64,000 nt of DNA from positions 192,001 through 256,000 of the forward strand of contig CAVSBQ010000002.1 of the NCBI GenBank assembly GCA_963726265.1, written 5' to 3'. Of this stretch, positions 6,780-19,939 are shown one piece after another. How positions within the stretch are numbered: the stretch's first letter is position 1; the number at the start of each line of letters is the position of its first letter. The notes under the pieces were generated by a model. The model searched no databases, was not told the DNA's origin, and was given only the letters and a program-made list of their open reading frames with translations. The stretch is from Candidatus Aenigmatarchaeota archaeon. Its GTDB lineage: Archaea; Aenigmatarchaeota; Aenigmatarchaeia; QMZP01; QMZT01. The position numbers were made by a program, and so were the translations under genes.

Positions 6780-7976
6780 GTGATTACAGTGCTTGAACTG
6801 AAATTCGATGCTGAAAGAGGCGTGTGGGCCGACGCGGCCGAAACAGTGGAAAAACTGGCGAGCGATTTCTTCGGCGACAGGGAGAAGGACGTCGTAAAGC
6901 TCATGCCGGAGGAGGCGCTCTACCTCATGCTCTTCAGGAACGCGGTCGTGCACGACGGCGGCAGGGATATGAACTTCAACGACGTCGCAGGCCATTTCGT
7001 GAAGAAGGAGCCAAGGCTTTTCATCCGCTATAACGCCTACCGCGACTGGCGCGATCGAGGCCTTGTCATCAGGAGATTCCGCCTGAACATACAGGGCAAG
7101 CACTCCAAGAAGACGTACAAGAAATACCCTGCGCAGAAGTTCAGCGGCGACAAGATAAAGGCGAAGGCATTCTGGTATCCCGACTCATTGTTTTCCGTCC
7201 TCGACAACGAAGAAGCCGGCAGACAGCTGTTCGAAAGGTTCTGGCTCGGGCAATACGGCGTCTACAAGCAGGAGAGGGGGCAGCAGTCGAAGCTCGACTT
7301 CTTCGAGACCATTTTCATAGCCAAGCATCTCGGCGCCGAGATAATCAACAGCGAGAGCGGGAAGCGGATGACATACCAGGAGGTCGTGAAGGAGGTCGTC
7401 ACCAGACGCGAATACGCGAAGCAGCTGTACGACGTCTACGAGGACTGGCGCATGAAGGCATACGTGGTCAAGACCGGCTTCAAGTTCGGCTCGCACTTCA
7501 GGATTTACTTCCCGGGCGCTTCGCCTGTGAAGGAGGACGAGTGGATACATTCGAGGCACGTTCTCCACGTCTTCCCCAAGGAGCAGAAGCTGCTGATTTC
7601 GGAATGGTCGCGCGCCGTCCGCGTGGCGCATGGCGTCAAGAAGACGTTCATCCTCGGCGTGCCGGAGCTGACGAAGGACGACTACATCGACCTCCCTGTG
7701 GACTTCGTGGCCTACAGGAGGAAGAAGGGCGCGGGCGCATGGGTGCGCGAAACCCCGAAGGACAAGCCGAGATACATGCTCATCGCCGTATCGGAAGACG
7801 AGCACATCGGAGGCGTGGAACTCGCGTCGCTCCTTAACAAGGCGAAGGAGATGGGTCTCAATCTCCTTCTTTCGATCACGGACAGGGAAACCAGCATAAC
7901 CTATTACGAACTGAAGAAGATAATCCTGCCCAAGTCCAAATACGAATACTACGAGATAGAATGGTTCAAGCCGTGA
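6780..7976 (+). CDS. endA: tRNA-intron endonuclease, three-unit (epsilon2/ARMAN-like) architecture
   Basis: N-domain (LMPEEALYL, YRDWRDRG), full catalytic unit (KTGFKFGSHFRIY, HS, RVAHGVKK), C-terminal structural unit ending YYEIEWFKP. Confidence 0.9.
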   Translation: MITVLELKFDAERGVWADAAETVEKLASDFFGDREKDVVKLMPEEALYLMLFRNAVVHDGGRDMNFNDVAGHFVKKEPRLFIRYNAYRDWRDRGLVIRRFRLNIQGKHSKKTYKKYPAQKFSGDKIKAKAFWYPDSLFSVLDNEEAGRQLFERFWLGQYGVYKQERGQQSKLDFFETIFIAKHLGAEIINSESGKRMTYQEVVKEVVTRREYAKQLYDVYEDWRMKAYVVKTGFKFGSHFRIYFPGASPVKEDEWIHSRHVLHVFPKEQKLLISEWSRAVRVAHGVKKTFILGVPELTKDDYIDLPVDFVAYRRKKGAGAWVRETPKDKPRYMLIAVSEDEHIGGVELASLLNKAKEMGLNLLLSITDRETSITYYELKKIILPKSKYEYYEIEWFKP

Positions 7977-17675: not shown

Positions 17676-17936
17676 TGTCTTGGCATAATCCGGGCTATTC
17701 CAACGAAACGGCCATTGCTGTTGAGGTCGTTGTTGCCGTTGAGACCATTGTTGTAGTCGTTGCCAACGTACAGCAGACGGCCGTTTAGTAGCTCTTTTAC
17801 CGAATGCAACACCGCCGCTTCATATTTCGGCAAAGCCTACTTAATGTCGTGGCTGAATTTCATGCCCGCCTGTTGCAGGGCTATAAAAGAGCGTGTAGCC
17901 CGGACATCGCCCTGATTTCAGGGCAATGCCAAGACA
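17676..17936 (-). ncRNA. Putative structured TR-containing DGR RNA
   Basis: Nested inverted repeats of 11, 9, 9 and 7 bp enclose the TR; TATA-like TTTTATAA about 20-25 nt upstream (17958-17965). Confidence 0.65.
17696..17784 (-). repeat. DGR template repeat (TR)
   Basis: Minus strand acggccgtctgctgtacgttggcaacgactacaacaatggtctcaacggcaacaacgacctcaacagcaatggccgtttcgttggaata; AAC-rich. Confidence 0.95.
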
Positions 17937-17986: not shown

Positions 17987-18697
17987 CTATTTTTCACGTA
18001 CCCCAACGAAACGGCCACCGCTGCCGAGGCCGCCGCCGCCGAGACCATCGTAGCCGCTGCCAACGAACAGCAGACGGCCGTGTGGTTCGTTCGGTTTGGT
18101 GGATAAATCGTCAGAATACCAGATGCTTATCCTATCTCCCTTGACTTTTTTGTGTCTCTCCAAATATCTTTCAGCTCTTTCCTTCCCGCCGAGGAATGGT
18201 TTTGTCTGCGGATGCGTCAGCGCCTGGCCAACAGGAATTATTCCTCTCTGAGAATTCATCAAAGCATCATGTCCGATTGCAAAGACTTCTTCGTCATCTG
18301 CCATGTCCAGAAGCCTTTGAAACTCTTTCTGGGGCATTATCCCGGCGCCGTTGACCAGTCCTTTATTTATGGCTTCCATTATGTTTTTTGGTTTATAAAA
18401 ATGAGTAGGAACGTGAGCATAAACGACGAATTCCGTTCCGCCTTTATGGGACGCGTTTGTTGATGCTCCTCTTCCTGCCACCCTCACGCTGGGGCTATCA
18501 AACCAAACCTGCCAGATTCTGTCCCCCTTGTCTGCCGCAATTCTCGCCTCGGCGATTTCCGGCATGAACAACGGCCTGTACGCCGTGTTTAGACATTCTT
18601 TCAGCGCGTCTGGAATGCCATAATTGCGTCCGCTTGTTTCACGATAAAATTCCCTTGCCGTTGTTCTGATGTTTATGGGGAACGTGTTTTCTGCCAT
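17987..18697 (-). CDS. DGR target protein with C-terminal variable region
   Basis: C-terminus GRLLFVGSGYDGLGGGGLGSGGRFVGVREK is encoded by the VR; no signal peptide. Confidence 0.92.
   Translation of the reverse strand: MAENTFPINIRTTAREFYRETSGRNYGIPDALKECLNTAYRPLFMPEIAEARIAADKGDRIWQVWFDSPSVRVAGRGASTNASHKGGTEFVVYAHVPTHFYKPKNIMEAINKGLVNGAGIMPQKEFQRLLDMADDEEVFAIGHDALMNSQRGIIPVGQALTHPQTKPFLGGKERAERYLERHKKVKGDRISIWYSDDLSTKPNEPHGRLLFVGSGYDGLGGGGLGSGGRFVGVREK
17999..18081 (-). repeat. DGR variable repeat (VR)
   Basis: Aligns to TR with 15 substitutions, all at TR adenines, plus two 3-nt deletions. Confidence 0.95.
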
Positions 18698-18849: not shown

Positions 18850-19416
18850 ATGAAGAGCGACATAGCGATACTGAAGCTCCTGCTCGGCAGGAAGGATGAG
18901 AAATTCACGATTAAAAAAATAGCCGAAGCCCTGAAAATCAACTACAGGATAGCTTATGAGCAGGCCATGGCGCTGGAGAAAGGAGGCCTGCTCAAAATCA
19001 CGAAAACGGGCAATTCCAACTTTTGCGAGTTCACGTATGCGTTTGACAGCAGGGTTTTCGAAGCGGAGTATGCAAGAAGGAAGGAGCTTCTGAAAAACAG
19101 AGACTTTCTTGTGCTCCATAACAGGCTGGCGGAGCTCAGGTTTCCTTTCATCGCCTTGCTGTTCGGCTCTCATGCAAAGGGGGTCGCTGACAAACATTCA
19201 GACATTGACATTCTAACGATTGGCGGGGATGCAAAGGAGATAAAGGCGGCAGTTTCGCTGCTGCCATACAAAATTCATCTGACATCCGTGGACTACGAAA
19301 ACTTCATCGCCATGGCAAAAAGCAGGGAATTCACGGTGGTGAGCGAAGCGCTCAAAAACAATGTTATATTAATCGGGATAGAAGAATATTACAGGTTGCT
19401 GTCAAATGCTGGATGA
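18850..19416 (+). CDS. wHTH-fused minimal nucleotidyltransferase (MNT antitoxin)
   Basis: N-terminal HTH (FTIKKIAEALKINY), LFGSHAKG...SDIDIL. Confidence 0.85.
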   Translation: MKSDIAILKLLLGRKDEKFTIKKIAEALKINYRIAYEQAMALEKGGLLKITKTGNSNFCEFTYAFDSRVFEAEYARRKELLKNRDFLVLHNRLAELRFPFIALLFGSHAKGVADKHSDIDILTIGGDAKEIKAAVSLLPYKIHLTSVDYENFIAMAKSREFTVVSEALKNNVILIGIEEYYRLLSNAG

Positions 19417-19939
19417 AAAGAGAGTGAAGGAAGCCGGAGATAATGTCAGGTCCTACCTGGAAGAAGGCCTGCTCAGAAAAACGGCCGTGAACAGGCAGGT
19501 AATGGACATTCTGATAAAAAACGCTAGGGAAAGCCTGAGGGTAGCGGAAGAAATCCGGCAAAAAAATCTGTCGGATTTGTGGGTTATCGTATGCTCGTAT
19601 TATGCAATGTTTTATTACGCAAATGCCGTTCTCCTGAAACTCGGCTACAAGATGGGGGACAAGATTGTCCACAAGGTGACTTCGGACTCGATGATTGTCT
19701 ATGTCAGAGGGAAGCTGAAGGAGTCTCTGATAGAAGATTACGAGCAGACAAAGGAAGAAGCGCTAAACCTTGCCGGCATGAAAGCGGACTCGCTGATTGA
19801 ATCATTCGAGTTTGAAAGGAACAAACGAAGATTAATCCAGTATAAAACCATAGAAGTCGAGAAGCAATCCAAAGCCAAAACGTCGCTGCAGAGAGCTAAG
19901 GAATTTGCAAAGGAAATGGATAAATTGCTTGCTGTATAA
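19406..19939 (+). CDS. HEPN-domain protein (putative toxin)
   Basis: SYYAMFY.A.AVL, H, ER.KR...QY; overlaps the MNT gene. Confidence 0.8.
   Translation: MLDEKRVKEAGDNVRSYLEEGLLRKTAVNRQVMDILIKNARESLRVAEEIRQKNLSDLWVIVCSYYAMFYYANAVLLKLGYKMGDKIVHKVTSDSMIVYVRGKLKESLIEDYEQTKEEALNLAGMKADSLIESFEFERNKRRLIQYKTIEVEKQSKAKTSLQRAKEFAKEMDKLLAV

Follow-up and report, generated by a model that had tools for sequence, protein, structure and literature searches.

How does a DGR make its cDNA when it has no Avd? The reverse transcriptase (RT) of the BPP-1 DGR, bRT, is inactive without Avd. In the survey of Wu et al. (2018), avd was described as common and not universal, being present in 275 of 372 DGRs, and cDNA synthesis in the quarter or so that lack it has been an open question since then, with Avd-independent homing already inferred for some DGRs in the same text (PMC5758913). 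Here we analyzed a DGR in a window of 64,000 nt, the whole stretch of DNA under study, from the genome of Candidatus Aenigmatarchaeota archaeon (assembly GCA_963726265.1, contig CAVSBQ010000002.1; host genome of 1.13 Mb, 88% complete). We consider, with a probability of roughly 0.7 and from sequence comparison, that the RNA of this locus is the BPP-1 DGR RNA in circularly permuted form, in which helix P3 would prime cDNA synthesis at A17896, helix P4 would stop it, and the stem enclosed by P4 would bind RT. Compact and apparently active although avd-less, the locus offers a predicted priming nucleotide and a predicted stop helix, so that the question could be tested with one protein and a 260-nt RNA.

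A DPANN-type DGR in the Aenigmatarchaeota genome

The locus is a DGR, as a DGR-type RT lies beside a TR, the TR/VR pair differs in an adenine-directed manner, the target has a lectin fold, and IMH (TGGGGT) and IMH* (TGGAAT) are both present. One TR, one VR and one RT were counted across the whole assembly. Along the minus strand, the target gene (18697-17987) is followed by about 200 nt of non-coding DNA, TR, 29 nt and RT (17668-16607) (Table 1). The target gene matched AvpA (PDB 5IOO) with an E value of 6e-52 in phmmer, and VR is carried by the C-terminus of this lectin-fold protein. Fourteen of the 15 mismatches between TR and VR (locus L034 in our collection) fall at TR adenines, and there are in addition 6 nt of gaps in AAC repeats. 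The RT is 32% identical to BPP-1 bRT (E 6e-56) and does not belong to the retron clade, its score with the Retron NCBIfam model being 42 against a cut-off of 235. Since its closest relatives (55-62% identical) come from Nanoarchaeota, Aenigmatarchaeota, Pacearchaeota and Woesearchaeota, the locus was regarded as a DPANN-type DGR.

Within the same window, a gene pair resembling an MNT-HEPN toxin-antitoxin system (HTH-nucleotidyltransferase and HEPN, both by weak matches) is encoded at 18850-19939 on the plus strand, divergent from the DGR target, and a tRNA splicing endonuclease domain (PF01974, E 4.7e-20) is encoded at 7428-7670, also on the plus strand and about 9 kb from the DGR.

Table 1 Features of the DGR and of its RNA, listed in the order in which they are read on the minus strand (window coordinates).
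Feature	Position	Strand	Basis and remarks
DGR target gene, 236 aa	17987..18697	-	ORF; homolog of nanoarchaeal AvpA, a C-type lectin fold variable protein
VR	17999..18081	-	TR/VR comparison; 3' end is IMH TGGGGT
TATA-like box TTTTATAA	17958..17965	-	Its first T lies 29 nt ahead of P1; predicted to be the DGR RNA promoter
P1 5' strand, closing helix	17926..17936	-	Sequence; conserved in relatives
Rfam RT-16 (RF03019) match, full model 1-158	17783..17934	-	91.8 bits against a gathering cut-off of 50, E 1.1e-14
P2 hairpin, variable insert between P1 and P3	17909..17924	-	Fold; differs in length and content from one relative to another
P3 5' strand, predicted primer strand	17896..17904	-	Covariation and VR-defined register
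3-nt linker CAC, joining primer strand to stop duplex	17893..17895	-	Sequence
P4 5' strand, predicted cPRT-Stop duplex strand	17884..17892	-	Covariation
Variable hairpin 3' of the stop strand	17864..17881	-	Probable counterpart, by position, of BPP-1 Sp71-78
Conserved single strand AUGAAAUUCA	17854..17863	-	Candidate A-minor / thumb-ring segment
Two-internal-loop stem, predicted to bind RT	17810..17853	-	Sarcin-ricin-type loop AGUA 17838-17841 / GAA 17826-17828
P4 3' strand	17791..17799	-	Ends 7 nt before TR/VR identity starts; equivalent of avd369-379
TR	17696..17784	-	3' end is IMH* TGGAAT; copying predicted to begin at A17698
P3 3' strand, template strand of the predicted primer duplex	17689..17697	-	U17697 pairs with A17896
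P1 3' strand	17676..17686	-	Sequence; conserved in relatives
DGR reverse transcriptase, 353 aa	16607..17668	-	RVT_1; intact, with GNLTSQ and YVDD motifs

The helices around TR and their conservation in related loci

A first-pass annotation of the window had described P1 of 11 bp, a hairpin, P3 of 9 bp, P4 of 9 bp and P5 of 7 bp as a scaffold from which TR is looped out, and each of these helices was found on the minus strand exactly where it had been placed. The 261-nt region folds with a z-score of -5.2 relative to 100 dinucleotide shuffles, and it holds three perfect stems of at least 9 bp, which none of 2000 shuffles matched (shuffle mean 0.10). When this single sequence was folded, the pair probabilities were 0.81-1.0 over 9 of the 11 pairs of P1, about 1.0 for P2 and 0.88-1.0 for P3; those of P4 went from 0.95 at its base down to 0.18, and that of P5 was 0.09. 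In the same fold, the predicted RT-binding stem had a probability of 0.03 and the two ends of TR paired with each other at about 1.0, which means that the template would be hidden unless RT remodels the RNA.

RT homolog loci were drawn from genomes, metagenomes and viruses, and the anchor motif of the RNA was present in 86 archaeal-type loci, a count that covers the present locus and one duplicate; in a viral pattern scan, RT lay beside one of 37 matches. The TR 3' end was set from VR, which avoids circularity and could be done in 59 of the 86 loci, and the helix-defined and VR-defined ends were the same in 51 of the 56 loci having both. The relatives are non-independent samples, and the shuffles below serve as controls and not as probabilities. 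P3 was assessed in 57 loci, namely every VR-defined locus, with mismatching ones kept and two near-duplicates dropped: 84% of its pairs were formed, against 66% (maximum 71%) with shuffled partners and 24-45% in slid registers, and the exchanges among relatives were G-C/A-U and U-A/C-G. P4 was 93% paired in 46 loci, against 70.5% (maximum 76%) with shuffled partners. RNAalifold recovered P3 and P4 unprompted from a structure-blind MAFFT alignment of 26 compact RNAs picked for agreeing anchors, with compensatory change in 16 of 19 pairs; when P3, P4 and the inner stem were named, 90.6% of the pairs in these 26 RNAs were formed against 69.4%, and 0 of 500 shuffles came as high. The two-loop inner stem was 89.7% paired and showed compensatory change in 9 of 9 pairs. 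The linker reads CAC in 32, CAT in 23 and CAA in 2 of the 57 loci, a result partly fixed by the anchor motif.

The covariation check on homologous TR flanks, which the first-pass annotation had proposed, thus came out in favor of its scaffold, as P3 and P4 covary strongly relative to shuffled partners and conserved helices loop out TR in the relatives too. Its idea of a leader that acts as a clamp was borne out: the pairing of the 5' leader falls precisely on the TR 3' end, the expected priming site. P1 scored 8.9 with its own partners and 6.6-6.9 with shuffled ones in 52 loci, which agrees with its place in that scaffold, some of the automatic P1 calls being spurious AT-rich matches; in these calls, the insert between P1 and P3 that holds P2 measures 1-75 nt. 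The TATA-like box that had been noticed ahead of P1 is present as well, and TATA-like words in 46 relatives peak 27-30 nt before P1, with 25 at -30 to -27 and 42 over the other 66 positions.

Two other pairings were real at this locus and did not extend to the clade. P5 forms 7 bp here, but its helix score over 39 loci was 4.64 with its own partners and 4.66 with shuffled ones, and it competes with the covarying RT-16 inner stem, so it was ruled out as a conserved helix. The pairing of the TR ends is strong here but only weakly enriched in relatives (5.73 against 4.89), reaching a score of at least 6 in 15 of 39 loci, and was not retained as a general feature; the two ends code for one and the same G-R motif, so that the pairing may reflect protein coding. 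Two further candidates were discarded: P2 as a target-side DNA cruciform, P2 being about 75 nt from VR and not conserved, and re-circularization of the RNA through a terminal bulge-helix-bulge, for which scattered, unconserved candidates occurred in 12 of 77 loci and none occurred here.

The upstream part of the RNA is the orphan motif RT-16

The 5' part of the scaffold is the known orphan motif RT-16, in a known DGR clade. RT-16 matched 10 of the 11 archaeal RT homolog loci scanned, the eleventh being without upstream DNA, and was absent from all 9 bacterial loci scanned alongside them; in the phylum sample, it was above the cut-off in 15 of 151 genomes. In the passages of Weinberg et al. (2017) on these motifs, RT-10 alone is named as a likely DGR RNA and the others are only speculated upon (PMC5737381). 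The Rfam model of RT-16 ends at TR and has a local hairpin as its 5' end, whereas at this locus the same bases pair across TR in P1 and P3. That local hairpin of the consensus was not found here: its bases covary with the TR 3' flank, and only the short P2 core is local. The RTs that accompany RT-16 form one clade (SH-aLRT 99 in IQ-TREE; 0.925 in FastTree), the outgroups mostly having a downstream spacer.

The Rfam scan returned no match to RF03022 or RT-14 at the locus. It did return a weak match to RT-11 at 17810-17928 on the minus strand, and the RT-11 consensus contains GGACUACACGC and the inner stem of RT-16; RT-11 and RT-16 are likely the same RNA family.

A proposed circular permutation of the BPP-1 RNA

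In BPP-1, Sp47-56 pairs with the end of TR and A56, opposite U118, primes cDNA synthesis; a 2-nt linker (Sp57-58) follows, Sp59-70 pairs with avd369-379, and after it come a hairpin, an A-rich strand and a two-loop RT-binding stem (Handa et al., bioRxiv 10.1101/2023.10.23.563531). Priming there reportedly depends on the 2'-OH of Sp A56 and not on cleavage (PMC6182149). The avd:Sp cPRT-Stop duplex was predicted in 207 of 278 Avd-containing DGRs, including those of Nanoarchaeota, by folding 40 nt upstream and 100 nt downstream of TR in Avd-containing DGRs and five archaeal genomes (bioRxiv 10.1101/2023.10.23.563531), a span that necessarily leaves out any primer strand lying over 100 nt upstream of TR.

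For the RNA of this locus, we propose that the transcript would start near 17936 and that P3 would pair its upstream strand with the TR 3' end, setting A17896 opposite U17697 and beside the first template base. The 2'-OH of A17896 would then prime cDNA synthesis as the equivalent of Sp A56. After the 3-nt linker, the same strand would pair with the sequence just 5' of TR to form P4, at which RT would halt (cPRT Stop), and the elements that P4 encloses, namely the hairpin, the AAAUUCA strand and the sarcin-ricin stem, are predicted to bind RT. Such a topology would be obtained from the BPP-1 RNA if its 3' and 5' ends were joined and the chain were opened instead at the Avd-binding stem-loop. 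P1 stands in that place, and we infer that it is the opened equivalent of the Avd-binding stem.

The likeness to the BPP-1 RNA (RF03022, avd20-TR-Sp140) is seen in a TR looped out between a primer duplex that ends in A:U and an adjacent stop duplex, and in a short linker (3 nt here, 2 nt in BPP-1) followed in the same order by hairpin, A-rich strand and sarcin-ricin-like RT stem. Unlike in BPP-1, every module lies upstream of TR, with the primer strand 5' of the template; about 30 nt instead of 140 lie downstream of TR, the closing helix P1 takes the place of the Avd-binding stem-loop, and no avd was found. The spacing from the TR end to the RT start ranges over 15-54 nt in 55 loci (median 28), which is too short for a 140-nt Sp. 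The first-pass annotation had also suggested that the RNA does the job of the flanking RNA of other DGRs, and this part of its proposal fits well, since the RNA likely fills the role of the flanking (Sp) RNA.

As judged from the sequences of the relatives, the TR/VR boundaries fall where the permuted arrangement predicts. TR=VR identity continues for 2 nt within P3 before it declines, position j+1 being identical in 53 of 57 loci and j+2 in 20 of 57; likewise, U118 and G119 of BPP-1 are shared by TR and VR, and C120 differs. On the 5' side, identity rises 7 to 11 nt after P4 in relatives, and in BPP-1 TR starts 9 nt after avd379 with cPRT ending at avd383-387. The A:U pair was present in 57 of 57 loci, partly by construction, as the anchors required A and U. 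An automatic primer/stop search on Sp-type loci gave the wrong register for BPP-1 and was not used as support.

The same boundaries bear on an unlikely alternative, namely that the scaffold marks the limits of TR and that priming is by a 3'-OH after RNA cleavage at the site, by another nucleotide or by the target DNA. Priming by nicked TR RNA was reported in BPP-1 by Naorem et al. (2017) (PMC5703328). Furthermore, the first two predicted template bases (17698-17699) are adenines, and VR (18001-18002) reads GG in 47 of 57 loci and AG in 6, a fixed AA>GG outcome that priming at A17896 would leave unexplained unless that part of VR escapes replacement. The requirement in BPP-1 for the 2'-OH of Sp A56 and not for cleavage speaks against this alternative, and so do the P3 geometry and the 2-nt identity overlap, both of which reproduce BPP-1; priming by the 2'-OH of A17896 is thus the reading we prefer.

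Avd and the role of the RNA

Searches of this genome (88% complete) for avd were negative: bAvd gave no match at E up to 1 and a profile of six close Avds gave none. Among the 86 RT-16-type loci, 80 were without avd in the DNA fetched, and in the other six an ORF between TR and RT passed the bAvd Pfam cut-off, with P1, P3 and P4 kept. Five of these six come from genomes of the same family or order as the present one. Of 17 genomes with RT-16, those five had a bAvd match and the other 12 (87-93% complete) had none, so that, incompleteness allowing, lacking avd is the rule in this clade. Avd supplied in trans was set aside on the same data, neither this genome nor the 12 avd-less ones, all incomplete, having a bAvd match.

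The first-pass annotation had taken the RNA, in the usual avd slot, for a substitute that does the positioning job of Avd, and in its strong form this would mean that the upstream RNA evolved for that purpose. The rarity of avd in the clade agrees with such a view, but the six loci that carry the same RNA together with an Avd over the Pfam cut-off, between TR and RT, show that the fold cannot be what replaces Avd, and we regard the proposal as very improbable. The residue after the conserved N-terminal lysine of RT follows the presence of Avd, being Arg in 21 of 28 Avd-associated RTs (5 of 6 with RT-16) and Thr/Ser in 70 of 74 avd-less ones. This points to a change in the protein, although it is suggestive only, and Avd independence more likely lies in RT than in the RNA fold. 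In a quick IQ-TREE tree (52 rows selected from 106), the avd-bearing members formed one clade at a basal polytomy, which is compatible with permutation first and loss of avd later; FastTree disagrees, nesting them within the others. The avd-bearing relatives with the same RNA provide a matched control. In six loci (L045, L047, L048, L049, L050 and L108), avd and RT are connected by a stretch of about 7-13 G residues that preserves the reading frame in some of them and breaks it in others, possibly a slippage switch or an Avd-RT fusion.

That the helices mainly regulate expression, with P1 gating RT translation as had been suggested or the RNA serving as a switch while RT uses an unstructured TR, is the least probable reading and a far-fetched one. 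P1 does end 7 nt before the RT ATG, and in the pair-probability fold a longer P2 could compete with P1 for its last pairs. However, P1 is kept where avd is the next gene and in a cassette without a gene downstream, P3 and P4 match the TR/VR boundaries with single-nucleotide precision, for which regulation alone would give no reason, and nothing resembling a Shine-Dalgarno sequence can be seen between P1 and the ATG. In that cassette (locus L038, G122:C9:11243-11393), the target and a closed RNA/TR unit are followed by a T-tract and no gene, with RT about 1.4 kb off on the other strand, which supports a free-standing RNA.

Several other loci of the collection depart from the usual arrangement. 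Two decayed cassettes of one genome (L042 and L051, G055) have kept the RT-16 leader and lost TR, and no RT was found in that genome with the query used; in L011, L012 and L020, the RT gene is broken into two frames about halfway along the protein, as possible frameshifts or switches.

Diversification activity and inserts in TR

In run X1, a 264-nt VR contig (depth 6.2) differs at 18018, 18022, 18024 and 18054, and all four are TR-adenine positions, for which the chance is about 2e-5 (19 such positions); six flanking contigs (1,435 nt) showed 0 differences. These data, which come from one VR contig, indicate recent diversification by an avd-less element.

In 16 of 46 relatives (L001, L020, L033, L035, L037, L040, L045, L047, L050, L061, L074, L096, L099, L105, L113 and L124), TR contains inserts of 15-39 nt that are absent from its own VR; the TR of this window has none. 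Eighteen of 23 such inserts fit the geometry of bulge-helix-bulge introns, against 4.8 expected by chance. This suggests that the template RNA may be spliced by the tRNA endonuclease before copying, and intron-like inserts are indirect evidence that the TRs of the relatives bearing them are transcribed. No paper on bulge-helix-bulge template introns in DGR TRs was found in the open full-text literature.

A model for the clade

For the clade as a whole, we would give even odds to the following picture. This group of DPANN DGRs would use a permuted, self-closed RNA with its own promoter that primes at the nucleotide corresponding to A17896, most of its RTs would need this RNA alone and so make up one-protein DGRs, and the permutation would have come first, with avd lost later as the N-terminal interface of RT changed. 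If the permuted reading of this locus is right, the orphan motif RT-16 would gain a function and its Rfam fold would be corrected, a natural circular permutation of a retroelement RNA would have been found, and DGR-based mutagenesis tools for laboratory strains could be made simpler.

Comparison with known systems

The architecture of this RNA is distinct from that of Sp-type DGR RNAs, though both the DGR clade and the RNA motif were known. In the open full-text literature, with subscription journals mostly outside it, neither a link between RT-16 and DGR priming nor a permuted DGR RNA was found.

The module order is shared with other families. The consensus of Phage_DGR/RT-10 and that of RT-14 both run primer, linker, stop strand, hairpin, A-rich strand and AGUA..GAA stem, the A-rich strand being AAuACA in Phage_DGR, at the place of the conserved strand of this locus, and AAAaAU in RT-14. 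Like RT-16, the RT-14 (RF02921) spacer RNAs of avd-TR-Sp-RT DGRs have a stop strand, a hairpin, AAAAU and a UAGUAg..cGAA stem; unlike RT-16, they lie downstream of TR, are accompanied by avd and were missed by the RT-16 stem model. The AGUA/GAA pattern with its stem occurred in 36 of 80 RT-16 cores (shuffled mean 5.3, maximum 8) and in 13 of 47 downstream spacers (shuffled mean 2.3, maximum 6). A sarcin-ricin loop is given for RT-10, RT-14 and RT-16 in Table 1 of PMC13085918, where the loop of the solved structures is the AUUA variant; the AGUA/GAA pattern missed BPP-1 for this reason. When 74 other DGR loci were searched with a covariance model of the RT-16 inner stem, no Sp-type RNA was retrieved at E up to 5, so the case for common ancestry of RT-16 and Sp-type RNAs, which we infer, is made from motif order and topology. 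The sarcin-ricin loop is a recurrent motif and can converge.

In CPR DGRs of the layout TR-(avd)-RT (L015-L019 and L022), a different conserved RNA of about 200 nt lies upstream, with a short hairpin just after TR, and this is possibly another permutation.

The closest described elements are the DGRs of DUSEL4 Nanoarchaeota and other DPANN, for which the sections of Paul et al. (2015) on these elements describe IMH* and a target-side GRA hairpin and not an upstream RNA (PMC4372165). The present locus shares with them the target-TR-RT layout, the IMH TGGGGT / IMH* TGGAAT pair and an AvpA-like target, and L010, from one of the genomes concerned, carries the same RNA. It differs in having no clear GNA-triloop hairpin after VR, a feature present by a strict rule in 22 of 52 loci.

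Outside DGRs, the nearest parallel is the retron msr-msd, for which internal 2'-OH priming is described (PMC8867640) and in which 5' and 3' inverted repeats likewise close the RNA around its template. Unlike the retron, the system described here has a DGR-type RT and a TR/VR pair, its predicted priming base is A and not G, and its product is homed into a gene.
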